The notes under the pieces are model-generated. The model saw only the letters and a program-made list of their open reading frames with translations. It did not search any database and was not told the origin of the DNA. From NCBI GenBank assembly GCA_008632985.1, contig QPGO01000246.1:1-64000 (forward strand): a stretch of 64,000 nucleotides of DNA, read 5' to 3'. This stretch comes from Psammoneis japonica. Taxonomy: Eukaryota. The first letter of the stretch is position 1; each line of letters starts with the position of its first letter. Position numbers and translations under genes: made by a program. Positions 1,111-34,095 of this stretch are shown in pieces.

Positions 1111-1299
1111 ACAGCATTGAGCTTGCCCAAAACTCGTGAAAAAATGGGGCTGGCAGTCGAGTTTGTGGCGGCATGATGGGGTGCGATGCCGTGGTGGCTC
1201 TGTCAGAATTTGCCAGTCATGCACACGCAGAAACTGCACCCACGTCTTGGATTTTGACAGAGTCGAACCGGTCAATTCTGCTTTCTAGCTGGAGCAGCC

Positions 1300-1745
1300 G
1301 CAGCAGCAGCAGCTGGTCTTGTGGGTCCTGCAGCAGAGTGCAATTGCAGCAGCAAAGTGGCATTTGAAGTCTCTTCTGTCTAGTTGCAAAACAAGATCCA
1401 ATGCACAGCAAAGTGCAGCATCACTTGCACAAAACAGGGACAACACGACTCCACTCTCTCTCCAGCGTCCTCTCAGCCACCAACAAAAGCAGGTCAACAT
1501 TTTGCCTCACGGCTGCAGCATTTGTTTAAAGGGCAGCTTGGTGCCATTGCACCAGCTGGTGTCTTGCCTTGATGTGGTCCTTGGGGCTCAGATTTCACAG
1601 CCAGAGCATCTGTGCCGCCAACTTGATGCACAAAAATGCGAGCAAAAAGAGGGCCCCTCTTGAGCTGGCACGCTCAGCTCCTCTTCTGGCACTGCTGTGG
1701 AGTGCTGAAGGACCACTTGAATGTTTTTTTGGATGCAGCTGGTGC
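1300..1745 (-). pseudogene. Eroded 3' fragment of the 'VRF..RGLE' gene, paralogous to 7328-7620
   Basis: Aligns by eye to 7240-7620; ORF 1588-1779 KNIQVVLQHSTAVPEEELS vs KNIQTVVQHSAVLPEEELS. Confidence 0.8.
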
Positions 1746-1749
1746 ACAG

Positions 1750-4700
1750 CTGTGTGTCATCATGGCCAACTAACCCCACTCCCAGTGTGAGCCATTCAGC
1801 GGCTCACATCACGCGAAGTTGCGGGTGTCTCAGGTGGTTTGGGTCAAACCAAAAAGACCCAACAGACAACAGGCAAAAATGTGCAAAACAATGAGATGTC
1901 TGCAAAAACTTGGCATCAGTCAATGCAGTGGCATCTGTTTGAGACAGTGCAAGCTCTTGACTTTGGAAGTTTGCTTTGCTCTTTTGTGTCATTTTTGCAA
2001 TCACAGCAAGGGCAAAAGGAGCCAAAATTCTCTTGGACTCCTGTGCAAGTTGTGCAATTTCTGCCATGTGTGCAATTTGCAATGTGGCTGCTGATGCAGT
2101 TTGAATCCTGCTGCTGACCCTGGTCCAACACAAAACACACAACACCTCTGACAAGGAACTCTGCAGCCAACTTTTGTTTGCTCCATTTGAGACAAAATGG
2201 AGAGGCAGCAGTGCTGCCACACAATTTGATTTCAGAAAGGTCTCAGCACTTGTCACATGCTTCTTCCAACCAACCATTCAACAGCTGCTGAGCTCTCTTG
2301 ATGTCTCAAATGTTCCCTGATTTTGAGCCAAGACAAAGGGTTTGCTTGTGAAGCACATCTTTCTTGTCATTTTGTGTGCATCCTTGCCACTGCATCCTTC
2401 TGTTGGAAAATGCTTGAGCCGTCTTCTTTGATGAAAAGTGCCACAAGATTCTTCCCCATGGTGGAAAACCTTTGCTGTGCAGCAACTCAAATGGTGCTCA
2501 CTGGTTCTTGTCCACAATGGCTTTCAGAAGCAGACTCACACTCTCCAGCACTTGGAGTGCTCCCATGCAAGAAGATGAGCAGCACTGCCAAGAAGCAGCA
2601 CCTGCCTTGAACAAAGAGTTTTCACACACATGTTTCTGCCTGGGGTGTGTCCATCCCATCAATTGACAATGATCTTCAACAACATCTGCGCCAGCCCCTG
2701 TGAAACTTGCATGGTGTGAGAAAAAGTGAAAAGGTTTCGGACCAGCGAGAGTGTGAGAGGCAGCCACCATCTTGCTCACATCCAGGGTGATGATGATGCT
2801 CTCACAACTTGTGCGAGCACCAAGAAAGACAGCCTCCTGCAAACTGTTGTGGCACTTCTGCAAGATGTGTGCTGAGTTGGGACAACAAATGGTGTCTCTC
2901 AAAGGTGCCAACCAAACTGCTCTCAACCATGGCCACCTCACTGCCACCTCACTTGCAAAACACTGCTCATGAGGAGCCAATTTGTTTCAAGTCATTGGAG
3001 CAGCCAAGCATTCACTTGCACTGTGCTTGAAGAACAAGCGCACAAATGAAAGCAGAGCAAGGTGCGAAAAGTGGAAATTGTGAGATTAAATTTTGCTCTG
3101 TGATTTTTGGTTTGTCCGAATGAGTTCTCAATGGCCCAGAGCTTCTGCACTGCTTCTGCAGACAAAAAGCCTTTTGGAGAATGCAGTCATGACAACAGAT
3201 TGTCCGAACACAACTGGCGCTGACACACAAGATGTCAACATCATCCATTGATCGTGTTTGCAATTTTTGACTTCTGATCAACTCTGTGTGATCGTTCTGT
3301 CCTTCGCACGCATCCACGATTGTGGCGCGATTGACAGCACAAGTTGTGCGTGATTTTGCAAATGTGCGTGCCGGCATCATGGCAGTTGCGTGCTGCACAC
3401 TGCAGCTTCTGTTTGCATTGGATGCTTGCTCTGCAAAACCATGGCAAAAAGTCTTTGAAGTTGTTGAGAGAGAACCTGATGATGCTCAAAGTCTGTGTGT
3501 TGCCAAGAAGACTGTCCAGGGGACTGGCTGGCCATCACATGCCATCTCATGCCACACAGGAGTGGGATCTGTGAAACAAATGCAGGAGCACCACAACAAC
3601 AAAATGCTGTTGTAAATTGCTTCAAACTGTGACAAACACAACAACCTCATCAAACAATCACAGCTGCCCACAAGCCAGTTCAGTGCTCTCTCATTTGACG
3701 GCAGCTCAGTTCCTGTGCCTTGACTCTGTCATCACAAACAAAGCATCATCATTCCACAAATGCAAACACCAAACCCAAGACTGGCACATTGCACACCCCA
3801 TCCAGAACCATGCCAGTTCAAGAAGCCCTCCCACTCAGACAAATTGAAACATCCCTTGAAGCATGGATCATCAATCCACTCAATTGGGTGCAACCAAACA
3901 TGGTGGGTTCAAAGGAGACACATCTGCTTGCAGAAATCAACTTGCACAAACAAAAGGCAAAGGGGAAATGAGCGGCATTTGTTGCAAGTTGGGCACATCA
4001 CAGGGACAATTGCAAGCACTGCTTTGAGAAAGGAACACAAGTCAGAGAGTTTGGCGACTTCAGGGAGCATCTGAAGGAAGTCCAGAAGTTTTTGATGCAA
4101 CAGGCATCCAACCCATTTGTGACAAAACATGAAAACAAGAGATGGAGAATGATCAGATGCAACACTCAGTCACCAAGCTGAAGCAACAAGCTGGCCAGAT
4201 GGGGCTGGCATGATCAAAAAACAAGTCAACATTGGCTGAGCAGATCTTCAATGGATTTTGGGGAGCAGCAAGAAGTGCTTTTGGAACAATGTTGTTTTCA
4301 ATGGCTGGCGGCCCCTGAACATGCCACTGAAGAGCAGAGGTTTGTTTGATGCTGGATTTTGCAACCAAAGAAGCATCAGCAGGCATCTTGGCATGTTTCT
4401 TTGAGAACATGCTGGCGCTGAAACCAGTGCTGTGGCCTTTCCTGGTTTCACAAAAAACGATGCAATTCTGCTGTTTGGGGCCAAGCAGCAACATGCTTGC
4501 CATTTTGCAAAGTGCAGTCAAGAAGAAAGCAATGAAGACACTGACTTTGGCAATGAAAAGCACATTGACAAAGATGAATCCATGACAGCAGGTGAATGCA
4601 AAACAGCCACAAAAGACACCATTGAGAGCCAAGCCATGAGATGCATCAAGCAAGCAATTGGACACGCCCAAAACATGGCCTTTGTGCAGATGACAGTTGC

Positions 4701-5700
4701 AAGTGATGTTTCCACAAGGAAGGTGCTTGTTTGTGCACTCCTGAATGCTGTGCACAGCTTGCTCAAAGTGTGGTGCTGTTGGTTGTCAACCATGTTCTGT
4801 TTGTGTGCAGTGCGAACAGTCAAGTTGTTCATGTTGTGTGTTGATTGAGTGCACAGATGACCAAGTTTTGAGGCATGTTTGTTGAGGAGGCAATGTCCCA
4901 TGTGCGGGCTTTGCCTTGCACAACGGCTCCAGAGGACGGAAGACTTGGAAGGGAGCAACAAGTTGCCAGAACCATTCAATGACCACAGCAAGCCCTCATG
5001 CTTGTGTGGCATGCTGTGGCAATGCTTGCAGATTGATGGCATCTGCTGCAAGAGAGACGTGGGCCTCTTTTTGTCATCATCAGCCTCATTTTTCTGATGG
5101 TGTGTTGGCGCGCACCACAGGCAGTGCATGCTTCACTCATGCACCCACAACTGCACAGCATGGATGAAGTCTGTCTCAGTCTGCATGACCAAACTGGCAT
5201 GTGGGTGTTGAGGAGGAGACCCTTCTGGTGAGGGATTTTGCAGTGGATCCATGCACATGAGAAAGAGCTGGGGGTGTTTCATGAGCTGGGCTCATCATGT
5301 GAGAGATCAGGGAACATTGACATGTGGTCTGACTTGCAACTTTGATTTGCCCATTCAAAGACCATGACGAGAAGATGATGCATCTGTTTGCAGGACTGTG
5401 TTGGTCAGTCCAGAGGTTGTGCCAGTGTGCAACCGTGTTGTCATGGTCAAACAATGGCCTGCACTTGTGGAGTCTGATTGAAGCTGCACTGCAGTGTCCT
5501 GGCAAGTGCCTTTGCACTTTAGATGTGCAAAGGCATTTCAACTGCATTTGCAGAAGAGGCAGCATTGTTGGTGAATCAAAGAAAGGGAGTGATTGCAATG
5601 GATGGCTTGTGTGGAAGAACAGAGCATCAGTCGGTTGCCAGACACTGCAAACAGGCAAGCAGGGACAATGCCTCCACTGCACAAAGAATGGTCTTTGGTT
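1750..5700. pseudogene. Heavily eroded coding remnants of unknown identity (TpA/CpG-depleted)
   Basis: Protein-like fragments (e.g. 4432-4848, 5342-5746, 1804-2277) rich in Cys/His and lacking Tyr. No domain recognised. Confidence 0.45.
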
Positions 5701-5864
5701 GAAACCAAAAGACACACAGTGCATTGTGCCAGATTGTTCTGGGTGATCTGCAAACATGCAATGAACACCAAGTGACATTGATGGATGCATCTCATGTGCA
5801 TCCCCCCACACTCCTCAAATTTGGAGCCAATGCGTGGCTCATGCTGCCATGTGAACAAAGCAAC

Positions 5865-6830
5865 ATCCTTTTCTTGAGAACATCCAGTTTGGCCTTGACT
5901 GCATGGAAAAGAAGGTTGGGGTTGTGGCCAACCCATGCCAACATCTTGGCCCAAATGCCATCAGAAATCCAATCATGATGCAGCAACTGCAAAATGTCCC
6001 ACAACATCTCTCCTGGTCCCCTTCAATCTCAGATGCTTGATCCTTGCCAATGTCATGCCACAAAATGCAGGGAATGACATTGTGACATTCAAGCTGTCCC
6101 CCTTTTCTCCAAAAGAGGCACACAACACAATCACAAATGTGATTTTGTTGTTGTGCTCAAGCATTTGTCCAAGGGCTCTTGCACCACCATCTCCAGTGTC
6201 GTTGTCATCAAGACAAAGACTGTCAATGAATGTGCTTTCTTCCATGCTCCTGGCCAACATTTTGGCTCTCTTTTGACCAATGCAACAATCAGCAAGGCAC
6301 AAACCTGTCAGTTTGCAATGTTTTGTCAACAGCTCTCACCAAGACATTCTGCACCTTCATCTCCGATTGAGTTTCCTGTGAGGTCGACACTTTCGATTTC
6401 TGCACTCTGTTCAAGCACTTTGCACAAGGACTTTGCACCCTCAGGGCCAACGCCATTGTGGTTGAGCACAAGTTTCTCCAACCGAAAAAGAAAAGGGGTG
6501 ACTTTCGACAAACACTTGATGCCATCATCCCCAATCTTGTTGGATCAAGCACACACAGCTTTGGGAGGAGTGACCGAAGGGCTCGAGACAAACAGTCCAT
6601 TCCCTCTGAACCAGTGGCACAAGCAATCAAATGAAGGTTCATCAATTTGCAAAAGGAGGGAAGAACATGGCCCAATTGCTTGACACCTTTGACATCAATT
6701 TCTTCAGCCAAGATGAAGATGCTGTCGACCCAGCTCGGGTTCGTTTCAGCAAACACATCTTCTTGCAACCAATGCAATTCCCTCATTGCAACTGCAGGAG
6801 ACTTGTCAAATGCAATGAGCACAAAACGGC
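5865..6830 (-). pseudogene. RNI-like LRR protein, copy 2, frameshifted and eroded
   Basis: Fragments 6326-6511 (LVLNHNGVGPEGAKSL, VDLTGNSIGDEGAECL), 5973-6329 (LCLDDNDTGDGGARALGQML) and 5792-6007 (ISDGIWAKMLAWVGHNPNLLFH). Confidence 0.8.
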
Positions 6831-7076
6831 GTTAAGCTTACACTCAAACGTCGTTGAAAGAATGGGACTGAGATTTCTGTTGTGTTGCCGGGGGGGGGGG
6901 CAGGGGACGTGGGGACCGAGGACGCGGGACGCGGCGGCGAACAATCAGTCTCGCGACACCGGCACATCTCCACTCTCCATCGTGAGTCTGTCAAAATTTG
7001 TCAGTCGTGCGTCGTGCGGTAGTAAGTCCTTCACTCTAATAGCTACTAGAGAGCTAGCTACTAGAATGCCATTTGT

Positions 7077-7371
7077 AGCAGCAGAGTGACATTTGAAGTC
7101 TCTTCTATCTACCGGTAGTAACAAAATACGATCTAATATGGCAAAGTGTAGTGTCACTTGCATATAAAACAGGAACAACGCGATTGTACTCTAACGTCCT
7201 CTCAACGAAAGCGGCTCGAGATTTTGCTGCGCGGGCAGCAAAGTGATATTTGAAGTCTCTTCTAATAAGATCTAATATAGCAAAGTGTAGTGTCACTTGC
7301 ATAAAACAGGAACAACACGATTGTACTCTAACGTCCTCTCAACGAAAGCGGCTCGAGATTTTGCTGCGCGG
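7077..7371. repeat. ~140-160 bp tandem duplication covering the stop codon and 3' UTR of the RGLE gene
   Basis: gcaaagtgtagtgtcacttgcat...gattgtactctaacgtcctctcaacgaaagcggctcgagattttgctgcgcgg occurs at ~7141-7234 and ~7280-7371. Confidence 0.9.
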
Positions 7372-8157
7372 CTGCAGCATTCGTTCGAAGGGTAGCTTGA
7401 CACCGTTGCGCCAACTGGTGTCTTGTTTTGAGATAGTCCATTCTATTGTATTTGGGTAGAGATTTCACAGCCAGAGCGTCTGCGTCCCCAACTTGACGTG
7501 CGAGCACACGAGCCAAGAAGGATTGCTCCTGGGCCAGAATGCTCAGCTCCTCTTCTGGCAGTACCGCGGAGTGTTGAACGACCGTTTGGATGTTTTTAGA
7601 TGCGGCTTGACTGCGAACTTGACCGTGTAGTTTAGAAATCCATCGCTCCAAGCCTCGACGCGAATGAGCATGTGTACAGTATTGAATCAAGCCCTGTGAA
7701 CGAAACAAGGACGGAATTAGCAAAAAATGAACTCGTCTTTATTTATCATGACTTTCTCTCGCACAAAAACCCGACTTACCGCATCAGCAGATACTTGGTC
7801 GAGTGAAGTATTCTCGTTCTCAGTTGTTATGAATCGTCGAGTGTTGTTGAATGATTGGTCCAATCCAAGAAGCAGTCGATCATCTCGTCGCTGTCTCGAC
7901 TCTCGACAAATCTGACGAGCTGTTGCTTTGAATGCATAATAATCCTCTTCTTGCCACCAAATAGCGGCCCTTTCGGTCGCTGACATTTCATCAAGTGGAG
8001 CAACATACTCCAACACTTGACAAGAAGGAGCAAACCGAACGGTACTTTTTCGTTCGTGATTTGCGTCAATCACATCCAAGCGTTTCGTACCAGTCTCATT
8101 CTCATCTCGATCAGCGACCTCATGATGCACAGGTGGAGAACTACTCATCATGAACAT
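7328..8157 (-). CDS. Diatom-type hypothetical protein ('VRF..W..DY..RGLE' family); 2 exons, intron 7694-7779
   Basis: Exon 1 has STVRFAPS..IWWQEEDY; a GTAAG..CAG intron joins it in frame to exon 2 GLIQYCTHAHSRRGLERW..VGDADA. Confidence 0.8.
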
Positions 8158-13244: not shown

Positions 13245-13980
13245 ACGAGTATGAGGACTATGGTAGTTCATGAATACCGGTATATACTGTACTCTACATT
13301 TAGTGGTTTAAAAAGCTTGATCAGGATAGTCGACTCTGCACGGCATATGGTGGTTCTCTGTTCGAGAACCCTACGCTTTAGGAGTGATTCTATGGGCACA
13401 ACATCGTACCAGCGATGGTGGTGTTCGCATAACATAAATTCATATACAGCATGTATATATAAGATAAACCACACAAAAAATCTTTCGACACAGAAAAGAT
13501 GCACCATTCAACAACACACACCGCTATCCATCTATCGCAGCAATGTCAAACATCATCGAAGACGTCGTCCGGAACCAACGACGACTGTTTCAGGAACCAC
13601 TTGTCAATGTCAACACAAAGCCAACTGGGAATGCTCTCACCCTTTTCATCTGAATCTTGTTTAATGAGCTGAATTTTGGAAGTGAGTTTAAGCTGTCCGG
13701 AGTGGGAAAGACCTCGGGAAGTTAGCTCGTCGTCAACCTCACGCTCACACCGCTCACTCTCGTGCTTCTTCAGAATCGCAAGTTTTTTCGTAACGTTCAG
13801 CATCCTGTCAAAGTCGGTGACACCGCGATCAACCATCTCTTGCTCCAAGTGTTTTGTGTTGGCTTTGAGACCGAGAGGGCGATGAGAATTGACAGAATTC
13901 TAAGAAGAATTAAAGGTGTATGTCACTCTCTGGCTGAAACATGTGTGACTATGTACAAAAAGCCTGTCAGTTTGAAGAAT

Positions 13981-14050
13981 GCGGTAAATGGTTTAGTCGG
14001 TAACCGGTTATAAGGGGACCTAGGTTCGATTCCTGGGTATCGCAATTTTT
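13981..14050 (+). ncRNA. tRNA-like Pol III cassette in the 5' LTR
   Basis: A box TGGTTTAGTCGG, B box GGTTCGATTCC, T-arm CTAGG-TTCGATT-CCTGG, acceptor-like stem GCGGTA/TATCGC-A, collapsed anticodon arm, T5 terminator. Confidence 0.75.
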
Positions 14051-14342
14051 CAGGTTGATGGGTCGGATTTAATCGAGTTGGTCAATCTTGTTTAAATCCT
14101 GTCATGGTGCGAGGACCGTTGATGATTTGAACCTAGGTGTGTGTGCTCCTTCAAGATGACTCTAAAACTGAGGAGAGGCTGCGGTGAGACAGACCGACGA
14201 TGCACATAGTGCTCTTATTAGGGATGCCGAGGCCGGAATGGCCGCCCAATTATCAGTTCGCCGGGGAGGTCATGACATGTGCAGAAAAATGTGGCCCAGG
14301 TAGAAGGGGAGCTGTGAGAAGTATCATTGTCCAAAGAAAGGA

Positions 14343-14378
14343 ACGTCAGACAGCTTCGTGACGTCAGACAGCTTCGTG
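14343..14378. repeat. 18-bp perfect tandem repeat in the TRIM internal region
   Basis: acgtcagacagcttcgtg x2. Confidence 0.95.
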
Positions 14379-14481
14379 ACATATGGGGAGTGACAGAATT
14401 CTAAGAAGAATTAAAGGTGTATGTCACTCTCTGGCTGAAACATGTGTGACTATGTACAAAAAGCCTGTCAGTTTGAAGAAT

Positions 14482-14551
14482 GCGGTAAATGGTTTAGTCG
14501 GTAACCGGTTATAAGAGGACCTAGGTTCGATTCCTGGGTGTCGCAATTTTT
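14482..14551 (+). ncRNA. tRNA-like Pol III cassette in the 3' LTR
   Basis: Second copy of the cassette; both LTR mismatches fall inside it. Confidence 0.75.
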
Positions 14552-17082
14552 CAGGTTGATGGGTCGGATTTAATCGAGTTGGTCAATCTTGTTTAAATCC
14601 TGTCAAGAATGACATCCGAGAAGTCGCGGCGGCAAGTCTTCTCCTCTTTTCAGTTGACGTGAATTCGGCGCCTTTCTCCTTGTCCCAATTTGCAATAATC
14701 TCACCAACCTTTGCATCGCTTGTTTGTTCTCTTATGTTCTCTGACTTTGACAGCAGTGCGTCTTGAATTTGCTCTCGTCGTTTGGCCAATTCTTCGTGTC
14801 CAACCACGCTTGCCACCGATGCGTGTTGTTTCAGAATGTTCGAAACCGTCCTTTCAATGTCAAGGAGCTTCTTGATCCCATGCCTGTTGCCGCGCTTGCG
14901 CCGTGTTGGCTCATCATCGTTGGCATTGTCCTCTTCGTCTTCTTCTCCTTCGTCTGGCTTCTCTGGTGAGTCCTCCTCTCCATCACGGCGCTCTGTCATG
15001 AATCCATTGCTTGCGATTGCACAGGCATTTGCCATTGTCTCACTCTTGCCCGTTGATGCCATTAGAGCACCAAGCTTCACAAGTCGCTCATTGTCATGCT
15101 GCGTTGCTGATTGCGAGCAAATCTGCGTCAGAGCGATCATGCGAAAGGAGCGAGCGCGGGGATTGGACCGATCCCAAATGTCAAGATCCCCATTGCGATT
15201 TCGTCAACGACGGGTTGATGGCATGCAGCAAGTGGGTGCGACAATGTTTGCCCAAGGGATTCTCCCGGCACCCCCTTTTGAAGGAATGCGTGGAACTTGG
15301 CAAGGTTGATTTGCCTCTGATGAATTGTGGAAAAAAATGTTCCTGCAGCTGGAGTGATCGTTGCATTCTCGCTTTTCAGAAATCGTGCAACGACTTGACC
15401 CGTTGGTTGCTCGGAGCAAATGGCTTTTGTGATCCGCTCTGTCTTCAGGTGACGATCATTGTGTTTCCTCACCTGTGACATCATTTCCTTGACGAAGAGA
15501 CTGACCATTTCTTCTTTCCGGCTGCGACAAGACAGGTCTTGCATTGAGTTCACCTGATCCTTGAACGCCTTGAACTCACTCATTGTTGCCATGACGAAAG
15601 GATCTCCTCCAAATCTTCGATCATGAGGAAGTGTCGTGCGAGTCGATGGGGAGTCAAATGACCCGGGTCACCAACATTTGGATCCGTGCCTTGATGCCAC
15701 TTCACATGCGGGTTGAGCCATTTCTGTGCCATTCCCGCAAGGAAACAAACGTCCGTGACAATCCAAACCGAGGCGGCAAGCGACAAAAGGTTGGAGGCAA
15801 CTGCACTCTCTTTCTCTTTGGTCGTGGCATTTTTTCTCACTCCTTCAGCGATCAGCTTCAAGAATTCTAGAAACTTCCGAACGAAGCATGCGAGACATCC
15901 GATTGTCCACCATCGAGTGACAAGTGGCTCCTGCATGGCAAGCATCAAGTCCATTGGGGCATCAATCTCAGCAAGCAAGTTGTCTGGCAACTGCCCTGAC
16001 TCTCGAATCTTTGTCCACGCTGCACTGCTGACTTTTTCCATGCGGGCTTGAGTTCCTTGTACAATGTGCAGCACGTGTGAATAGCTGGATCGCATTGCGT
16101 TTGTCCAAACCGCCGTCACCGACATGAGTCTGGACTGGAAGCCGAAATGCCGACTGGACATCATGCATTCCGCAGGAATCCGACGTGGCCCTTTCATGAA
16201 CATTCCACAGTTGGCAAGAGCTGCACCAGCAGATTCTGGTGCACCTTGACCGGAGTCGCACGTTGCTCCCATCATTCGTCGATCGGACTGCCAAGCCGCC
16301 GCAGGCCATGTTTTGTCCCCTTCGCAATGTCTTCACTCTTCTTGCCATTGCAGTGAGGTCTGACCAGAACTGTGCAATTGTTCCATCCTCTGCATTTGAT
16401 TTGTCATCCTCGTCCATGTGCTAAAGAGTCTCACCTCTTGCCCGTTGTGTCCCCCATCAGATTGAACGAATGAAGCGCCTGCCTTGGACATGAGGTTTCC
16501 GAATGCAAGCAACTGCATGTGGCAAGCTGGACAACCCAATTGTCCAATGCAGTGTGAGAAGGGCTGCAACGTGCATCTTTGTGAGCGAAAGCCACTCGAA
16601 ATTGAACTTGCGGCCGTGTTCGTCCTCTTTGCAAAGTGCTTGGATCTCCCTCATGAACGCATGTCGAGCGATTGTTGTCAACAACTCTTGGTCAGGAGTC
16701 AAAATCTGAGGGTGACTCGATGAAAATGAAGCAAACAGAGTCATCGCATTCATTGCAGGTGAGTGTTTCCGCCTGCTGCAAAGCTTCTTCATTGCTCGTA
16801 CGACTGCTCTCTCTTGTTTGTAGCGGCCAAGATCTCCCTTCTCGACGAGCTCATGACTGTTCTTGCTGCTCTCTTCTTTTGCCATGCACGCGGATGGATT
16901 GCTCGGTTGGCTGCAACGACCAGTGGAGAGAAGCATTTGGTTGGCCTTGTTGACGGGAAAGAAGCCAACCTGATCGACCGGGAATGGCACGTCAGAACAT
17001 GTCGACTTCCAGGACTCCTGGAGCATCTTGAATGCTTCGTCGAAATTCGTTGGAGCTCTCAGCGTTTTATTTGGCTCCTGTT

Positions 17083-17285
17083 GTTCACCTGGATTGGGCG
17101 TTGTTGGACGCGGTCTTTTTGGGTTGGGCTCGTCGTCTTGATGATTCGTTGTCGGCGCAACCTTCGCCGGAGTGCGTTTGATTTCACCTGGACTGGGCTT
17201 TGCTGGACGCAGTCTTTTTGGTTTGGGCTCGTCGTCTTGGTCATTCTTCTTTGTCGGCGCAACCTTCGCCAGAGTCCGTTTGAGC
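17083..17285 (-). repeat. ~102-bp tandem repeat in the transposase N-terminal region (NLS-like)
   Basis: AKVAPTxxxxQDDEPxPKRxRPxxPxPGE occurs twice. Confidence 0.85.
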
Positions 17286-19247
17286 GTTCGACTGGAAGAG
17301 CGGTTGTCCCACATGGCCTGGTAGAAAGACGCATCTTTAGGAACATCAAAGTTGTTTGTAGCTGATGCACAGTGGAATCGAACATTCTTTTCTTCTTTTC
17401 CTTCATTTGTTGTACGGACAGTGACAACCTTTCTGTTGAAGCCAACAGTTGCACCTGACGGCAGCGTCGTTTTGCCATTGACAAAAACCAACTTTCGAGC
17501 TGTTGCTGTGTTCAAGATGTTTGCAGCACATTTTGGAAGAGACTTCCCAATGTGTCGGACCCACTCTTCATCTGCCATCCATTGATTGTGCATCTCCGGG
17601 CGTTCGGTTGCTTCAACAAATGCCTCGAAGGCCTCATTCCGGGACGACATCTTCTTCAATTTGTCCCTGCAGCTAAAAGTTTTTTGACATGAGCTCAAAA
17701 ACAGCATTGTCAACAAGTGTGCAAAATTCTTTTAGCTGCCGATGGGCACTTTTCAAGAACGGGGTCGCATCGGCTCTTTGCCCATCATCGTTTGTCGGCT
17801 TCTCCCGTGCTTCAGTGCGAGGCGCGCCAAATTGGAGTGAGCAAAAACGACGAGTCGAGCCAGTCAAGTTTCTTGCGAACCCCAAATTTATTGTTTATTT
17901 CAATTCTATGTGAAGTTTATTGTGAAACGGTTTCTACGGGATCTTGTGCCCACAGATTCTTGTCGAAGTCTAGAATCTCCAGGTCGAAGCGTTTTCCGAT
18001 CGTCCACCCAGAGAGAGGGTGCATTTCCACTTTCCACCGGCATTCTCTGGCACAAAATACGTTAGATGCATCTGATGACATGAAATGGCCACACCTTCTG
18101 GTGGACCACTTGGAGTCTACAAACAACTTTGACATGGGTCATCTTGTGTGGTCATGTCGTCTCCGTTGCCATCTTGCCTTCTTGCAGAGGACACGTGGCT
18201 TCTCTGGCTAGAGGTTGCATGGACTGTGTGCTCCGAACACACCTCCGAAGCACCCTTCTACTGGCTGCTGTAGAAGCGCTCTCTACTGCTAGCTAGAGAG
18301 TAGCCCTAGACTATTTCATAGTTGTCTCTACTCTCTACCGGTAGAGTAAGTGCCGTAAAGGAGCAATGAGATAGATGTTCAGAAAATGACGGTCGGTGGT
18401 CATCAAGACTCAAGAGTCTGTTGCAGTCTTGACCTCATGGTAGAGTACACGTGGCTTTTCCTTTGTTACTTAGGAATGGATACTGAAAGGGTGGTGTTTG
18501 TTAAGTAGGTTTGAGCTGGTTTCTGTGTCTTCGGTCTTGGGGCACTTTTTGTTGTCGGAAACAGGATTGAGTATTCAATTGCGTTGACCTACTTGATCGG
18601 TCATTACGACTAAAAGCATCAGTCTTCTCCTTCCTTATCTATTTGGTCTTGCGGGGCAACTTTTTTGTAATTTTAAGTCTTGCTCAATGTCTTTGCAAGA
18701 CATAGCACTTCGTAGTAAGATTCTGTAGGTTGTACAGCGGTGGTCACAATTCGAATGACTGGCCACGCACGTCGGCTGCGGCGCATTTTTTTGGCGGCGC
18801 ACCAAGCTTGGTGTTCGGTGTTCCATCTCACAACTCAACAAACAGCAACAAACGAAAGAGTGTGTTGCTATTGAAGGCGTTGTCCATTGGTAAGTGTATC
18901 CTTCTGTCCCGTCAATTCAGGTTATCGCTGTGTAAAGGCTGCGTCGCGTCACGTCACATCTCGTTTGGTGAGCCGCTCTGTTTCAACGCGGCGGCGGTCA
19001 TAGGTTCAAGGTCATACGGTTGCGACTGGTGTATGGCTTATCTTTGTTTCCCCATGTGGCTACTTATAAAATAAGTTCGGTTTCCCTTTGGTACTCATAA
19101 GACATATGAGTATTTTGTATCCTTATGGTACTTTTGTAAGATGAAGATTTAGTCATGTGTCTCATCCATACCCTTTCTCGTTTCTCCTCACCGAATTACT
19201 AAGGATTTTTTCGAATCGAGAAAAGTACAGTCCACGCTACGTCCAAG

Positions 19248-21011
19248 ATGCTCCTCAAGTTCAGCTCTGCAGCATCGATCATCTTGTCGCTGCTGGTTCC
19301 TGGTAGCGACGGCCACGGTTTGATTGAAGATCCTCCGTCGAGAAACTGGATCTGTGGCGCAGTCACCAAGCCTCACGAAGTCAACAACGGAGATGCTCAG
19401 TACCCACAATGCGGTACAGCTTTTAACTTTCAGAGGGAACCGGGTGGATACCAGTTCATGTCTGTTTTAACGCATGATGTTGGGCGTGCTGGGGTATCTC
19501 CATTGCCCACCAATGTCTGTGGTTTCGACTCTGAGACTTGGTCTGGTGGATCCACTCCGTGGGACGCCCCCATGGATTGGCCCACATCCCCAGCGACTCC
19601 TGGACGTCAGGAAATCAAGTGGAATATTTTCTGGGGACCGCACTTCTCCGATACCGAAGAGTTCCGCTACTGGATCACCAAGTCAGACTTTGTTTACGAT
19701 TCAACAAGAGCCTTGACGTGGAATGATTTTGAATCTGATCCCTTTTGCTACTTGACGTACAACGATAGCGTTCCCACTGCAAACCCAGACGTGATTCCCG
19801 ATACGGGTAGCGCCACGTTCAGCACCTTTTGTGATGTTCCTAATCGCAGCGGTCATCATATCATTTATGGCGAATGGGGGCGAAACCAGTGGACGTATGA
19901 ACGTTTTCACGGCTGTATCGATTTGGACTTTTCTGGTGGAGGCACTCCTTCTGGCCCGTTTCCATCGCCTCCAGGACCCCCCGGTCCAGCGGGCGGTCCA
20001 ACTCCGTCAACCCCAGTCCCGAGTCCTTCGCCCCCTGTCACGGCCGACCTTGCTCTATCACCAAGTGTCAGCAGCATTACAGGATCAGGTACCATTACTT
20101 TGATTGCTTCAGGGTCTTCGGGAAGCAACCTAAGCTACTCGTGGGCCTTCTCCACACCCTCTGGCGATAATTCCCTCTACTCAATTTCTGGCTCTGGAGC
20201 TACGGCCACTCTGACCTATGGTGATCCTACCGCCGAGCGTTCATTGATGATCATGCTGACCGTCTCCAACGCAGATGGTACCAGTACAGAGTCTGTGACC
20301 ATTACGCATTTGCCGTCCACGACAAGCGGCAGTCAGTGGGTTGATCTAGGGCCCCTGACGGACATGAGCATAGTACTTGATGTGGGAGTCCAGGTGAGTG
20401 TCCGCGCTGTCGACTCTAACGGCGTGGACACGTACTATCCAGACCCAGCATTTGTCGCTGGTACCAGCAACCGCTGGGCCGACAACTGGCCTTACTATCT
20501 TTCGCAAGCGATTTCTGCAAGCGCGCCCATTGCTGTAGGACAGCTTAACACTGCAACTGATAGTGTTGATGGTATCTGGAACGCAACCGGTGCTCACATT
20601 TACGCTCGCGTTGGTAACAATATCAACGCCGCCTATCTACATCTCGCAGATCCCGCACCTGCTCCTACGCCCGCCCCTGCGGGTGGCGGCGGAGGAACTG
20701 GCGGCGGTGGAGAGTGCTCTATTTCGTACCAGGCTGCGTGCAATCCTTGGTGGTGTGGATTGGAAGTGGGATTCGATACTCAGACCATGACCTTGGATTT
20801 CACTGGAAGTGGATTGGACCTATCCACTGTTACACAATTTCAAGGCGTATCGGGTGCAGTTCAAAACGGTGCCTTCACTGTCACTCGGTCCGGCCAGACA
20901 TTGCTCCTACAGAAGGAAGGTTGGGTTAGTTTGGGAAACCGCGGATATTTGGGCTTGAACGGTAACAACGTTCCAGCCCTTGCGACCTTTACATTGCCCA
21001 CTTGCATCTGA
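19248..21011 (+). CDS. AA10 lytic polysaccharide monooxygenase with Pro/Gly linker, PKD/Ig-like and GbpA-like accessory modules
   Basis: Signal peptide ending SDG|H (His1), HGLIEDPPSRN, WGPHFSDTEEFRYWITK, LTWNDFE, VPNRSGHHIIYGEWGR, RFHGCIDL. Intronless. Accessory domain calls are tentative. Confidence 0.9.
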   Translation: MLLKFSSAASIILSLLVPGSDGHGLIEDPPSRNWICGAVTKPHEVNNGDAQYPQCGTAFNFQREPGGYQFMSVLTHDVGRAGVSPLPTNVCGFDSETWSGGSTPWDAPMDWPTSPATPGRQEIKWNIFWGPHFSDTEEFRYWITKSDFVYDSTRALTWNDFESDPFCYLTYNDSVPTANPDVIPDTGSATFSTFCDVPNRSGHHIIYGEWGRNQWTYERFHGCIDLDFSGGGTPSGPFPSPPGPPGPAGGPTPSTPVPSPSPPVTADLALSPSVSSITGSGTITLIASGSSGSNLSYSWAFSTPSGDNSLYSISGSGATATLTYGDPTAERSLMIMLTVSNADGTSTESVTITHLPSTTSGSQWVDLGPLTDMSIVLDVGVQVSVRAVDSNGVDTYYPDPAFVAGTSNRWADNWPYYLSQAISASAPIAVGQLNTATDSVDGIWNATGAHIYARVGNNINAAYLHLADPAPAPTPAPAGGGGGTGGGGECSISYQAACNPWWCGLEVGFDTQTMTLDFTGSGLDLSTVTQFQGVSGAVQNGAFTVTRSGQTLLLQKEGWVSLGNRGYLGLNGNNVPALATFTLPTCI

Positions 21012-28579: not shown

Positions 28580-31500
28580 ATTGTGTCGCCCATCATGACA
28601 CAAGGCTTTCATGCTCTGTCTCAACCTCTGGCATCTGTCACTTTTGTCTCAGTCTGGTGCTTGCAGAGGGACAGACCAGTGCCATCTTCCTGTGCTGCAG
28701 GCACCGAGGATGGAACATGGGGCTGCATTCCCCGCGTGCAAAGATGGGCTGTGCCCTCGCTGTCACGACGCTCACCATTCTCGCATCAACAAAGCTGTGC
28801 ACTTCTGAGTGTGGTTTTTGCCATTTGTCTGCAGCAAGCCACGTCTCTGCTGTGCTTGACGCTGCCTTTGTTCTGGCTTCTTTGTTGCCGGGCAGTGCAT
28901 CCACAGCACACACAGTGCCACAAAAGGAGCAAAACGACATCGTTGTTCAAGGCAAGGCTTGAAATGCTTGCACTTTTTTTGTGGTCCAGCAGAACCTGCT
29001 CTGGCGCACGCACTGCTTGAGTGTTTGCCACAGCATCTGTCACTGCTCTCTCCCACACTGGCGCTGACCAAGGTGTCTTTGCAGCCACCATCTCTCGACT
29101 TGCCAGAGTCCTCATTGACACTCAGCAAACTGCTGGATTGACCAGGACTTTTTGAGATGTGACACAGGTTGATGGCAGGTTTGTCATGTGTGCTGAGGAA
29201 GGCTGGGCAGCCTTTGCCAATGGTCTGCCAAGCTCACTCATCACACAAATCTCATCATGACAAGAAATGGCCAGCCCACCCTTCTTGCACTGAAGAGCAT
29301 GTTGAGTGAAAAACTTGCATTTTCACATCATGTGTGTGCACAGGTGTGCAATCCAGTGGAGACATGTCACAGTTTCTTCTGCAATCTGACACTTGGCATT
29401 GTGTTTCTGGAAGCCATGTGCGTCTGACATTGCCCGGCCTGTCAGCTTCTGGGTGGAGGTCCAGCCATCCCACATGTGAGCACCAACGCAGGAGCTGGTG
29501 CAGGCTGTGCATCATTTCTGGGATCAATCATGCCAAGTTCCCAGCCCCCCCCCCCAGCCCTGGCATTGCTGTGAGAAGCTCATGTGTTGGGTGGCTTGAG
29601 TCACTGGAATGCTGGAAAATGAGTGAGCAGGTGGGTGGAGGCAAGGGGCAAGAAAAAAACACAACAACAGAGGCCAGAATGCATGAAGGTGAGGAGGATG
29701 ACAAAGAAAGCAGCAGCAACAGAGAGCCTGCAGCAAATGTGCAAAGATTTGCTGAAATGCCAATGAGACGCAAACAATGGCAAAGGATGCTGCAAAATGT
29801 CTTTGTTGCAAATCTTTTGTGAGACTCTCCAAGTTGTCAAGGAAACTTTGGATGCTGCTGACTGTGCAGCAGCTGCAGCTTCAAAGCTCTTCTCATTCAA
29901 AGATTTTTGCTTGTCATCAGTGTTTCCAGAGAGCCGTCAATGGTCACTTGTGTGTGGCTTTGACATGATCCCCTTGGCAGCCAAGGCACCATTTCACGCC
30001 TCTTCTGTGGATCCCTGTGCACCAGGAGCGGCCAGGACTGGAGGTTCAAGAGCCGCCAATGCCTCTGGCAACTGAACTGTGTGACTTGCCAATGCAGTTT
30101 TAACACAGATCAGAAGGAATGAGAATGCGAAGAGATGTCTGGAGAGAAGCCAGCCAGAGAGCTGCAAGCTCAACTCTTGATTTTCCTCTGGGTGGGTGAT
30201 TGTGCAGAGCTGCCCTTGATGTCAGCAGGCCCAAGTCAGTGCCCTCTTTGCTTTTTCTGCTGGGGCAACAGCAAAACAGAAAGTCAGAGCAAGTGGCAGC
30301 AGCAAATTGGTTGGTTCTTGGGGGCTCTCAAATCACCATTTGTCTTTCTCCCAAGTGTCTGGCAGTCTTGGGGCAGGGAAGAGTGTTTCTTCCCCAGACA
30401 CTGGCAAAGTTCAACTTTTCAATGTGCCGCCAGTCAACACATCTCCAAATTCTTGGAGATGAATGTGCACAATGTCAGGAGATCAACTGGAGCTGTTTGG
30501 CCAGATGTGCCAACCCATGTGCATTGGGTGTGAGATGGACTTGTGAACAAGTGGCTGTCCATCACATGTGAGCTGCGTGCTGCTGTGCACTGCACACAAA
30601 CCAGACATGCAGCATGTGTGGCTTTCAGCTGTGCTGTGTGCTTGCTGTGAAAGCAGCACAAATGACACATCACCTGAAGACACTTGCTCAGATGGCACAG
30701 CAAATTAACCTTCCATTGCAGCAAAGGGGCTGCTGGATGCTGTGATCAATTGTGTGGATGAGCCCAAGGTTGGGGTGTTGTGAACAAAGTCAGGGAGCAG
30801 CAATGATGTTGCTTCCTTCCACAACAAGGCCACAGCCAGCCCTGCTTGAGTTTGTTGCTCTCAGGCAACTCATTTTTTGCTCCAAAAGTTGGTTGGACAA
30901 TTGGCAGGCCAGTGCTGCTGTGGTTGCTTTTGCCAGCCCACTTCCCCCAGCAACAAGCATGCCAGGTGCATGGACAGCCCCCTTCATTGCCCAGCTCTTC
31001 ATCTTGTGCACATTTGTGGCTCCAATGAAGCAAGGCAGACAAGCCTGCAACAAGGCCATTTCCCAGCACCACACAGACAAACCTTTTGCATTGCAAGGAG
31101 CGATGTGATTCTCACAGAGAGCTCCATGGCCCGACCTGCTTGTGGTGTGTCTTGGGGGGCAGTGTTGGACAGTTTGCATGCATGGCTTGTGACGACTGGA
31201 CCAATCACCAGCAATTTGCAGCTTGGCATCTGCAAGCAAGAAGGAAAAACACAGGGGGCCAGGATGCTCACTCTGTGACTTGCAGCAGAGTTGCTTTCAA
31301 CCATGTGTGCACTTCTTGTGCCTTGCACATGGTTTCCACTCATCACCAACGTGGCACCCAGTGCTGACAAGACACACTTGAGATGAGCCAATTTCAAGAG
31401 AGCCCAACTTGCCACAAAGGCAATCAGGCCATTGTTGCCAGGCAAGGTGGCTGCTGAAAATTCACTTCCCCCTGCTTTTCTTTTTTTCCCAGAAGGGCTG

Positions 31501-34095
31501 CAATTCCACAAGTCCTGAAAATTGAGCCACTTTCCAATGTTGATTTGCAGATTCATTGTGGAGTCTTCCATCAGAGCATGGGTGCAACATGCATGCTGCC
31601 TGGTGCCCACCCATGGAGGCAAGCTCATCTTCAAATGAGGCACAGAGCAAACCCACGCTGTGGCTGTTCAAAGATGAGGCAGCTCCCAAGTGGCAGCAGA
31701 TTGTGCAACCCTTCTTGCCCAACCCCAAACCATCATGGTGAGAGATGAAACTTGAAGGTGCAGCAACTCAAGCACAAAAGCAAGAGCCCAGAATTTCCTC
31801 ACATGCTCAAGGCTGGAGTCACCAACATGCTCATGTGCTGCTGAGGCAGTTGGCAAAAAATTGCACCCCTCCATGTGTGGGGCCACCTGCTGGCACCAGC
31901 ACATGCACCTGTCAACACAAGGCTTGCATGCTTCCACAACAGTCTTGAAGTGAAGCTCATCATCAAGTCATTGGTGGCAATGCCCCCCCCCCCCACTTCA
32001 GGTTCAAGAAACAACCAAACTGGCTGGCTGGTGCCTGAGAGCATGGCTGCCAATGACACTGAGTTTCCAAGAGACAAGCCTGCAGACAATTTGTTGTTCA
32101 AGACAGTGCCCATGGGAGGGAAGGGTGCAACGCACCCTGCCCTGCTGCACCAAACTGCTTCACAGCTGCAATGAAGGTTCTTTTGCCAGAGCAGGAGGGG
32201 TTGAAAGAAGCCAGAGACATCTTCAAAGGAAGCCAAGCCCCCCAGTTTACAAACACCAAGTCTCCAGCGGCAATGTGCTTGAGCATGTTTCACCACCACA
32301 ATGCTTTTGGTTGGCAACAAACAAGCCACCATTGCAGACAAAAAAGAGAGCTTTGGGAGTGGGCGCCTCTCCACAAGGCAAAAAGCCTTGACCAACTTTT
32401 CTTGGCAGGCACACAGTGTGCATTTCCTTGGCTGTGTGCTTCTTCTGGCTTGACTCATTTGTGTCCTGAATGATCATCTCACAAAACACAACCATGCAGG
32501 TGTTCCTTCAATGAATCAACTGCAAATGTTTTTGAACAGTGCTGCTCCCCCACAGTCTTTTGTTTTTGCTTTGACTGTGCATGATTTGAAATGCTCTTGT
32601 TCAAGGGCTTTGTGGTCATCTGTTGTTTTCTTGACAGCGGGCTCAGAGAAACATCCCTTGCTGAAAAAAAAGCCTCCATGTCAGCCATTTGAGCTGCAAT
32701 GCAGAGCATGTCTTTGGTGTTCAGCACATCATGTTGGGGCTCACACCACCAGCATTGAATGCCTGGGAAATGCCTTGCTTTTCTGTGGTGTGAGTCAGCA
32801 CATTTTTGAGGCCAATGGCAGCATCCTGTCTTGAGTGTGCAACATTGAGAGGGTTTGGTTTGCCAAGTCTGCAAAACAACAAAAATTGGCCACCTGATGT
32901 CTGCCTTTGCAGCCCTCATGATTGTTTGCACTGGCCATGATTGTTTGTGGCCATTGAACCCACCACAAATTGTTGGGGCTGGCCATGGCACAACAGCATC
33001 AAATTGCCAGAGCACTGCACCCATGTCACTTGATTTTTTGTTGAGCACTGCACCCGTCACTTGATTTTTTGTTCTCAAACACCACACAAACCTCCCTTGA
33101 GCTGGCAAACAACTCATCCAAGCTTTGTGCTGCAGACACTCTCTCTCACAGACATGTTTTGCCAAGCAACTCAAGCGCGGCAGCTCAGCTGAGGTGCTGC
33201 CACCTCCTCTCCTCAACCAAAACATCATTTGCGTGTGCACACTGCCATTTGTCTTGATGGCAGTCTTGTGCTCATGAGATGCTCCTGCTTCTTGGTGGAC
33301 GAGATTGTGTGGGCACAATTGGCAAAAGAAGAAAATCTTTTTGACTCAAAGCAGGGGGGGCTGTGCCTTCTCGGTGAACGAGATTGTGTGGGCACAATTG
33401 GCAAAAGAAGAAAATTTTTTGACTCAAAGCAGGGGGGGTTGTGCAGCATTAACTTGCTCTTTTGACAGCCTCACACCAGCCAAAGAGCGGAATTTGGAAA
33501 AGACAGACTTTCTGTCAGTGTCTCTTGGCGTCTCCGCCAAGTCAATGATCATGACAAGCACTGTTCTTGATGATGTCTCTTCGTTGCAATTTGCAAGAAG
33601 TCTTGTTGCAACAGCATCTGCAGAGTCTCTTTCCACACATTTGCCAGGTGCAGAGACCATCAGTGTTGTGAGCAGCTCCAGCAACAAGAAAAGAGCCGTG
33701 AGAACAGCCACCTGGCTTGCGCAAATTTGACGTTTTTCTTTGACCAAGCTGGCTGTCATTGTGTTTCATGATCACTTCTTTGAAAAGACCAGCACAGCTG
33801 CACATGACACATAAAGAGAGAGTGCTCCTCAGAGAGCTCAGCAACAAAGAGAAAAGAAGCACAGGCTTGAACCCGGCACAGCTGCTTTGCTTTTTGAGCC
33901 ACACAGGAGGGCAGAGTTCTCCCGAAAGGAGGCGAAGTGAACCAAATCAATGCTTTGACATGGGGTCACCCATTTCCCACCATTGTTCCCATTGCTTTAC
34001 AAAATTAACAAAATTGTTGGCAACAAACCAACACTGTGTGGTGTCTTGTGGTGGTCTCCAGGTGAGAGTAAAACAAGCTGTGCTCGGTGCTCGAC
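28580..34095. pseudogene. 5.5-kb TpA/CpG-depleted domain with eroded, unidentified coding remnants
   Basis: About 8 TpA seen in ~5.5 kb. Cys/His-rich overlapping ORFs. 33424-33759 has an N-terminal TM-like segment. No TIR or LTR found. Confidence 0.55.
33288..33444. repeat. ~79-bp tandem duplication
   Basis: cttct(t/c)ggtg(g/a)acgagattgtgtgggcacaattggcaaaagaagaaaat..gactcaaagcaggggggg(c/t)tgtgc x2. Confidence 0.92.

Follow-up and report, generated by a model that had tools for sequence, protein, structure and literature searches.

Near-total loss of TpA without loss of CpG in a hAT-like transposon of Psammoneis japonica: a probable footprint of DNA-level hypermutation

The closest described counterpart of the pattern considered here comes from the chlorarachniophyte Bigelowiella natans. 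As set out in the preprint on its mutation-accumulation lines (Mettrop et al. 2026, bioRxiv 10.64898/2026.01.13.699255), two integrated viral regions of this genome mutate at ~6e-7 per site per generation, the rate in such regions being ~1000-fold above the baseline; of the new mutations, 210/211 and 20/20 are A>G or T>C changes, every one of these at the dinucleotide TpA. The parts of that preprint drawn on here also describe 124 genomic clusters that are depleted of TpA and have a surplus of CpA+TpG, most of them with genes that cannot be annotated; an enrichment of the TpA-depleted genes for DDE-transposase and reverse-transcriptase domains; an ADAT2-like DNA adenine deaminase, proposed for B. 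natans; and, by citation, DNA editing by ADAT2 in amphioxus. Here we examine a 64,000-nucleotide (nt) stretch of Psammoneis japonica DNA (contig QPGO01000246.1 of assembly GCA_008632985.1, positions 1 to 64,000 of the forward strand; hereafter, the window) and, within it, a degenerate hAT-like DNA transposon at 13391-17954, the interior of which has lost most of its TpA and has kept its CpG. We read this as the same signature as that of B. natans, found here in another supergroup, with a cut-and-paste transposon as its target, near completion, and with CpG decay layered on it.

The two cases are alike in that TpA becomes TpG or CpA according to strand, within local domains of foreign or mobile DNA. 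Specifically, the traits of the B. natans case recur in the window as A>G/T>C change at TpA (between paralogous repeats none of 30 TA is kept and 27 have undergone transitions to CA or TG, and conserved Tyr codons read CAC, CAT and TGT), as its occurrence on both strands (the 27 comprise 16 CA and 11 TG, and both His and Cys stand in place of Tyr), and as its restriction to local domains on mobile DNA (four zones, one of which is the hAT-like transposon). The differences are nonetheless clear. The host there is a chlorarachniophyte, whereas here it is a diatom-like stramenopile. As far as the portions of the preprint cited here describe them, the targets in B. natans are giant-virus and virophage insertions, whereas here they are a hAT-like transposon, unidentifiable repeats, and a fragment of a leucine-rich repeat (LRR) gene. 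Likewise, TpA in the nucleocytoplasmic large DNA virus region of B. natans has a rho of 0.45, whereas the depletion here is near-total (0.03-0.09); CpG has decayed in the cores of domains here, and the word CpG occurs 0 times in the preprint's text in the form available. Finally, the mutation rate in B. natans was measured directly, whereas the process here is known from its sequence footprint alone.

Other known systems offer partial likenesses. Repeat-induced point mutation (RIP) of ascomycete fungi is also a DNA-level, transition-only, context-specific hypermutation that wrecks repeated or mobile DNA in blocks. However, the C-to-T changes of RIP fall mainly at CpA, so that TpA is created and GC falls, whereas here TpA is destroyed and A:T pairs become G:C; furthermore, a high-copy short repeat inside the element has here been spared. 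Because RIP creates TpA, fungal RIP can be regarded as a functional analogue that is chemically opposite. As an explanation for the present pattern, RIP (C>T at CpA, with TpA excess) was rejected, because every affected zone has a TpA rho of 0.00-0.09. ADAR and ADAT2/TadA, like the adenine base editors built from the latter, convert A to I, which is read as G, and their preference for a 5′ pyrimidine or U fits the change TA>TG. We know of no deaminase of the ADAR, ADAT2 or TadA type that erases TpA from chromosomal domains. A full-text literature search returned no report of TpA-directed hypermutation besides that on B. natans (bioRxiv 10.64898/2026.01.13.699255).

Loss of TpA from the transposon interior

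Over 14606-17800 (3195 nt), a zone marked out by its dinucleotide counts as TpA-free and CpG-normal, there are 16 TA (rho 0.08) and 177 CG (rho 0.87), together with 308 TG (rho 1.36) and 245 CA (rho 1.44). Taking as background the 45,233 nt of the 64-kb window that lie outside the depleted zones (39.1 TA and 56.5 CG per kb), one would expect 125 TA and 181 CG in such a zone, and the Poisson probability of seeing 16 or fewer TA is ~1e-34. The near-total TpA poverty of the element interior is thus far beyond chance. Calculated per kb at 15001-17000, rho is 0.03-0.09 for TA and 0.80-0.82 for CG. An initial annotation of the window had noted abundant CpG and very few TpA in the transposase region; these counts confirm that description, and the CpG-rich strings quoted in its support lie at 14623 and 15200. 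It had further proposed that TpA loss is no by-product of CpG deamination. In the element TpA has been lost without loss of CpG, and this proposal therefore stands. There is no accompanying C>T component in the element; in the cores of other domains CpG has also been lost, which may be a separate process. With host coding DNA as the reference, the TA deficit of the element (~27/kb) compares with a gain in CA+TG of ~26/kb. On the coding strand the whole gene has 97 CA versus 77 TG per kb, and its best-aligned 750 nt have 64 CA versus 71 TG; the CA:TG strand ratio is uneven and patchy along the gene.

The degenerate transposase gene within this zone permits the loss to be viewed through the protein. 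For this purpose, 150 relatives of the transposase were placed on the element by tblastn, and the 18 columns were taken in which at least 25% of them have Tyr. At not one of these 18 does the window copy read Tyr: it has F at six, H at three, E at two, and a single instance each of S, W, A, R, Q, C and L. The four best-supported columns read CAC (Tyr in 92/120 relatives), CAT (41/130), CAC (12/26) and TGT (5/7), codons that are one transition away from TAC or TAT. Overall, Tyr makes up 3 of 1056 residues (0.28%) in the open reading frames (ORFs) of the element versus 159 of 6932 (2.29%) in 12 host ORFs, while His (3.2 vs 2.0%) and Met (3.7 vs 2.4%) are more frequent in the element and Cys is barely higher.

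The relatives themselves have a Tyr content of 2.83% overall, and only six of the 150 fall below 1%. At the level of DNA, 14 metagenome loci that encode relatives, found with a five-sequence alignment and 31-53% identical, have a TA rho of 0.31-0.61 and a CG rho of 0.40-0.98 over the homologous stretch, with 31.6 TA/kb versus 4.0/kb in the window element. The initial annotation had recognized that its interpretation would fail if intact copies of the transposon were natively poor in TA and Tyr; this was examined, and the Tyr content and TA rho of the relatives, together with the His and Cys found at Tyr columns, speak against it. Three relatives are themselves nearly Tyr-free (P0164, P0156 and P0129, with Tyr 0/206, 1/312 and 1/211), and the Tyr-poor relatives have His or Cys at Tyr-rich columns, which suggests that they may be eroded copies of the transposase family in other assemblies. 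In addition, two of the metagenome loci (L011 and L014) have a milder signature, with a TA rho of 0.32-0.33, a CG rho of 0.60-0.67, and a TG/CA rho of 1.38-1.41.

Paralogous repeats and depleted domains across the window

Two direct repeats, X and Y, provide an internal control. Copy X1 (11-1152) lies in a TA-poor, CG-normal zone at the left edge of a domain depleted of both dinucleotides, and copy X2 (5701-6870, plus strand) lies inside that doubly depleted domain; copy Y1 (1349-1740, plus strand) is likewise inside it, and copy Y2 (7235-7607) is outside all depletion. From X1, which is itself only partly eroded, to X2, none of 18 TA is kept, eight reading CA and eight TG; from Y2 to Y1, none of 12 is kept, eight reading CA and three TG. 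The outside copies of the two repeats contain 71 CG; the depleted copies keep 14 of these and show TG or CA at 43. Raw identity between copies is 71-72% and becomes 86-90% when purines and pyrimidines are collapsed (for X2, 72% and 88-90%); with transitions ignored, the paralogs still differ by 10-14% through transversions and indels. At 23 more X sites one copy has CA and the other TG, as expected if both X copies mutated independently from TA or CG. In both repeats the depleted state tracks the domain edge, not the repeat unit. Three independent lines of evidence thus mark the loss of TpA in the element as mutational and not native: its best-supported Tyr columns read His or Cys, its relatives are TA-normal, and TA has been lost in place between paralogs.

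Some further features of this repeat deserve mention. Its two parts together form a diverged direct repeat (11-1740 and 5701-7607) with a spacing of 5.7 kb, and the depleted domain extends from mid-copy to mid-copy. The first part of the repeat encodes leucine-rich repeats of the RNI type, and LRR_6 matches are found only in the less eroded copy (445-965, minus strand).

Surveyed per kb, the window falls into three states: a background with a TpA rho of ~0.4-0.85 and a CpG rho of ~0.8-1.3, the nearly TpA-free but CpG-normal state of 15001-17000, and a doubly depleted state. Against the background stand four local zones, one of them the element interior, with edges at 14605/14606 and ~6870. At the left of the window, a TpA-poor, CpG-normal zone at 200-1200 lies on the LRR_6 gene fragment, that is, on copy X1; the initial annotation had placed region ~260-800 in the same state as the transposon, and this is borne out by the 200-nt bins covering 201-1000, which contain 3, 1, 0 and 1 TA and 9, 11, 7 and 6 CG. 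It is followed by the first doubly depleted domain at 1200-6870 (TA 9, CG 70, TG 631, CA 685), the right edge of which (~6870) is sharp, and in which the loss of CpG is graded at the left edge. A second doubly depleted domain is found at 28600-34000 (TA 6 and CG 53 over 28700-34000); both of its edges are TA-free and only partly CpG-depleted. Finally, dinucleotide counts define a TpA-free zone with partial CpG loss at 56600-57800. The doubly depleted state, as seen at 2001-6000 and 29001-33000, is characterized by a TpA rho of 0.00-0.03, a CpG rho of 0.07-0.33, and a TpG/CpA rho of 1.85-2.02. Self-comparison with purines and pyrimidines collapsed shows the depleted domains to be unrelated to one another. 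A Pfam search of 118 ORFs from all depleted zones found only LRR_6/LRR_1, in the undepleted repeat copy, to pass the curated cut-offs, the few other matches falling short of them, and a protein search with a 288-amino-acid (aa) ORF of the 28.6-34 kb domain gave no usable match.

Division of the window into 320 bins of 200 nt places 52 bins low in both dinucleotides, 30 low in TA only, one low in CG only, and 237 in the normal class. Thirteen of the bins low in TA only are in the element, and others are at 401-1200, 3201-3400, 28601-29000 and 56601-57000; the single bin low in CG only is an edge bin with 2 TA. Thus 52 of the 53 low-CpG bins are also low in TpA. Where TA loss is present it is all-or-none, and the loss of CG is limited to the cores of domains and fades toward their edges. 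CpG loss is nested in the TpA-free zones, and the two processes therefore share targets: they are separable, and share those targets all the same. The initial annotation had called the two processes uncoupled, which is accurate for TA loss without CG loss (the 30 bins) but not for CG loss, which nearly always accompanies TA loss.

In the cores of three domains the replacement of CG by TG or CA (43/71 CG in the paralog comparison) resembles the decay of methylated CpG in silenced transposons of vertebrates and plants; unlike the present process, that decay explains no loss of TpA, and it is absent from the element. The differences listed between the window and contigs from a public sequencing run (run X1) point in the same direction: over 2354-5351, 10 of the 18 among those listed are exchanges between CpG and TpG/CpA, and one is a double exchange of CA and TG, which suggests that turnover of CpG continues in the first domain's core. 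The order of events is a further consideration. The initial annotation placed the element at an early stage and the domain at 28.6-34 kb at a late one, and part of the evidence makes this plausible, in that the gene of the element is recognizable and the doubly depleted domains are not, and the paralogs of those domains differ by 10-14% with transitions set aside; however, differences in methylation would look alike. It is plausible that TA is lost first and fast and CG later and slowly, and differences among domains in cytosine methylation fit the data equally well.

Within the first depleted domain, ~3040-3340 is a very high-copy short repeat, with a summed contig depth of 19,080 (bin 2669-3335) and many loose ends. 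The bin at 3201-3400 has 13 CG and 0 TA, and this TA-free, CG-rich patch may be a younger insertion in which TA has been lost and CG not yet.

Anatomy and class of the element

The inverted ends, the GATTC flanks, contig joins and depth together delimit an element of 4564 nt at 13391-17954, with its transposase gene on the minus strand. The left terminal inverted repeat (13391-13401, plus strand) is TATGGGCACAA and the right (17944-17954, minus strand) is TGTGGGCACAA; these 11-nt ends agree at 10 of 11 positions, and their sole mismatch is TA versus TG. This is the difference that the initial annotation had seen as ctATggg versus ctGTggg, found at 13390-13396 (plus) and 17949-17955 (minus). 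The ends are flanked by copies of GATTC at 13386-13390 and 17955-17959, a putative 5-bp target-site duplication. The limits first given for the element, 14606 to 17900, were too narrow: a TA-poor left arm (6 TA in ~380 nt) resumes at ~13500-13880, parted from the main zone by an insert. At the left end TA is kept over ~110 nt (11 TA in 13391-13500), and at the right end it is kept over the outer ~150 nt. The TA-free zone thus covers roughly the transposase gene, the short stretch upstream of it, and some of the left arm.

The insert (13881-14605, 725 nt) has normal TA, with a sharp TA edge at 14605/14606. It contains a 223-nt repeat twice (13882-14104 and 14383-14605; 98% identical), which ends in a tRNA-like GGTTCGATTCC box, and it looks like a short interspersed nuclear element (SINE)-type insertion, although an ARAGORN tRNA scan and an Rfam scan of the window, insert included, gave no match. 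The insert is high-copy in the public run, with a contig depth of 520-930, and another copy joins 13879 to 14672. Four other joins (13704 to 17711, 13646 to 15300, 15331 to 17639, and 15351 to 17682) are as expected of internally deleted copies of the element elsewhere. Summed contig depth in this run is 164-323 over 14675-18009 versus 49-53 over 18010-20000, which is the flanking gene. A second run (X2) has no coverage over the TA-free zones and is not drawn on. The contigs point to 3-6 sister copies of the element, several of which, with deletion derivatives, have at least 80% likeness.

Three-frame translation defines the transposase pseudogene at 14586-17731 on the minus strand, in four main stop-to-stop pieces, 17731-16460, 16650-15583, 15667-15140 and 15203-14586. 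The frame changes several times and is interrupted by one in-frame TGA (16335-16333), and the tblastn alignments of the 150 relatives cover 16906-14646 (~2.2 kb alignable) by hopping frames. The ORF first described (16457-17707, minus strand) is 416 aa from its ATG and has 2 Tyr; the two Tyr and the VRFHC string (residue 109) were as described in the initial annotation, and the length of 419 aa given there was not. The basic, Pro/Lys-rich N-terminal part of this ORF contains a ~100-nt tandem duplication, 87% identical, at 17084-17283.

An exhaustive, profile-free search with a 250-aa piece of the transposase recovered 206 relatives (E<=1e-3); those of full length are 700-1200 aa, and near-invariant D, D, C..H and RWW residues are common to the relatives. 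The predicted structure of one relative, P0121, has a predicted local distance difference test score (pLDDT) of 80.5 and a predicted template-modeling score (pTM) of 0.77, and in a Foldseek comparison with the PDB its top 10 matches are all chains of the Hermes transposase (E 5e-7 to 1.4e-5, probability 1.00), with template-modeling scores on the target of 0.36-0.57. By this match the model would have the RNase-H-like DDE core of Hermes, interrupted by an all-helical insertion domain; this fold comparison concerns P0121, which is 33-37% identical to the window gene, and not the eroded copy. By predicted fold, then, the element is hAT-like. At the level of sequence, neither the transposase pieces nor 16 relatives matched any Pfam family with the E threshold relaxed to 10, and the same search found no hAT C-terminal dimerization domain; a profile of the 16 relatives against PDB sequences gave nothing below E 1.7, and a word-indexed homology search with the 416-aa ORF gave no match among proteins of 228-728 aa. 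In addition, the 8-nt flanks of the element do not match as an 8-bp target-site duplication, only the 5-bp GATTC being shared. Some groups of hAT elements make shorter target duplications. Compared with the known hAT elements (Hermes, Ac, hobo), therefore, the Hermes-like fold of P0121, the short inverted ends and the internally deleted copies are alike, whereas the lack of a Pfam or PDB sequence match, the 5-bp rather than 8-bp duplication, and proteins of 700-1200 aa are unlike. The inverted ends, the deleted derivatives and the Hermes-like fold of the relative nonetheless agree with the label of DNA transposon applied in the initial annotation.

Candidate mechanism, alternatives and consequences

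We consider it likely that the degenerate hAT-like transposon, which lies in the nuclear genome, bears the footprint of a TpA-specific hypermutation that operates at the DNA level and is directed by the host at mobile, repeated or foreign DNA. Some 87% of the TpA expected in the element interior has become TpG or CpA through transitions that affect both strands, and CpG there has remained at background level. Both TA>TG and TA>CA are found on one strand, as seen in the outcomes at X and Y and in the occurrence of His as well as Cys for Tyr; the process therefore acts on DNA, and on both of its strands, which the editing of one RNA intermediate would not do. Chemically, the likeliest route is enzymatic deamination of the adenine in 5′-TA-3′, which would convert it to hypoxanthine, which is read as G, giving TA>TG on the deaminated strand and TA>CA when the event falls on the other strand; the enzyme would probably be an adenine deaminase. 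The loss of CpG in the cores of other domains would be a second, slower process, most simply the deamination of 5-methylcytosine in repeats that are presumably methylated. In diatoms, transposons are generally described as methylated. Targeting through transcription or an RNA guide would fit the position of the TA-free zone on the gene and the sparing of the ends. The high-copy repeat of the insert is unaffected, so the targeting is probably not simply of anything repeated.

A more far-reaching possibility, which we raise only tentatively and think somewhat less probable than not, is that diatoms possess a dedicated, TpA-specific DNA adenine-editing defence that operates on the transcribed inner part of mobile elements, ahead of and independently of cytosine methylation, and that together with the chlorarachniophyte case this represents an old and widespread eukaryotic "adenine RIP". 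If so, it may have gone unnoticed because its products merely look rich in CA and TG.

Several observations weigh against a TpA-specific, host-directed process on a hAT-like element. The 725-nt insert keeps normal TA even though it is high-copy; either the process had come to a halt here by the time the insert arrived, or some repeats escape it, or the TA-free state was inherited from an ancestor copy. The relatives used in the Tyr analysis are only 31-58% identical and are not the element family's own consensus. CpG loss is found outside the TpA-free zones in only 1 of 53 bins, the edge bin, which would fit a single agent acting on A and on C at different rates. Lastly, with a 5-bp duplication and no Pfam match, the hAT assignment is structural only.

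The first of these points leads to the alternative that we take most seriously, though we still judge it unlikely, namely that the TA-free state was not produced locally and came from an ancestor copy, spread by transposition mobilized in trans. This would account for a TA-normal insert whose border at 14605/14606 is abrupt; an element that could still move would have to keep its ends, and these have been spared; and there are several sister copies and deletion derivatives at a likeness of at least 80%. However, inheritance would alter where the erosion occurred and not its nature, the same process acts in place on X and Y, whose depletion follows the domain edge, and a transposase without its conserved Tyr is an unlikely active source.

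Less probable again is that one agent acts on two substrates: within the same marked domains, one deaminase or one defect of repair would convert both palindromic pyrimidine-purine steps, TA as well as CG, into TG or CA, with TA the faster. The two losses would then have a common cause and differ in rate alone. The co-occurrence of the two losses (52 of 53 low-CG bins are also low in TA), the grading of CpG loss inward from the domain edges, and a summed rho of TA+CG+TG+CA that is constant at ~3.8-3.9 in all states speak for such an agent, and ADAT2 enzymes able to deaminate A as well as C in DNA are cited in the part of the B. natans preprint's Discussion referred to here (bioRxiv 10.64898/2026.01.13.699255). 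Yet the element has lost ~87% of its TA and no CG, so that a rate ratio far above 50 would be needed; the B. natans spectrum, as given in the cited portion of the same preprint, is essentially without C>T (1/211); and the decay of methylated CpG alone is a sufficient and ordinary cause of CG loss.

A TpA-directed process could, in principle, start from the other base. In this scheme the T of TpA would be oxidized by a TET/JBP-type enzyme to 5-hydroxymethyl- or 5-formyl-uracil, which pairs with G and yields T>C. Oxidized thymines mispair with G, and 5-hydroxymethyluracil favours TpA in dinoflagellates. Oxidation of T would leave the same products as adenine deamination, TA>CA and on the other strand TA>TG, and the X/Y and Tyr data therefore fit both. 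We nonetheless regard it as improbable, more so than a shared agent: the sole experimental precedent, in the parts of it considered here, proposes adenine deamination, itself without proof (bioRxiv 10.64898/2026.01.13.699255).

The remaining two explanations are very improbable. Native composition or selection, by which the family would avoid TA through codon usage or by shunning a TA-cutting nuclease or the insertions of TA-targeting mariner elements, could draw on the fact that TA-free DNA has only TGA stops, and so long ORFs in every frame, and on the TA kept at the ends of the element; it is already largely refuted by the conserved Tyr that have become His or Cys, by relatives with normal Tyr and TA, by a gene broken by frame changes and a stop, and by X and Y paralogs that lose TA in place. 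An artefact, in which modified bases at TA and CG are systematically miscalled, either by the sequencing or by the polishing, with the two strands settling on TG or CA, would mimic the TG/CA products and the change of Tyr to His or Cys if miscalls were strand-symmetric at palindromic modified sites, but exact-word contigs of the public run, at ~50x word depth, agree to 98-100% with the depleted sequence (for example, over 3290-3747 a 458-nt record shows 0 differences, and over 17104-17547 a 444-nt record shows 5), which would not be expected of error-prone reads, although this run may underlie the assembly of the window, and the X and Y paralogs also differ by 10-14% through transversions and indels.

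It is worth considering what this footprint means more generally. Its presence in a diatom-like genome suggests that TpA hypermutation is not confined to one lineage, and moves the question to a group with genetic tools and mutation-accumulation resources. Beyond what the cited portions of the B. natans preprint describe, a cut-and-paste DNA transposon has also been struck, and TpA loss can be distinguished from CpG decay: the element shows the first alone, and older-looking domains show both, nested. There are also practical consequences for annotation. In 14606-17800 the stops on the plus strand are TGA 72, TAA 3 and TAG 8, and those on the minus strand TGA 68, TAA 5 and TAG 3. With TA gone, TGA is left as the near-sole stop, and every depleted zone therefore yields long spurious ORFs, whichever of the six frames is read, by which gene callers can be misled. 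Furthermore, the Tyr-free transposon proteins of such zones are hard to annotate, and the dating of repeats by divergence is distorted.

The genes of the host in the window are compact and intron-poor. With the TFIIH-Tfb2 ORF as query, 234 proteins match at E<=1e-20, the highest identity being 60%, and the species-named matches are all diatoms. At 19203-21011 lies a host ORF with AA10 lytic polysaccharide monooxygenase, GbpA_2 and PKD domains, a combination that would represent a chitin-active architecture, unusual for a eukaryote.

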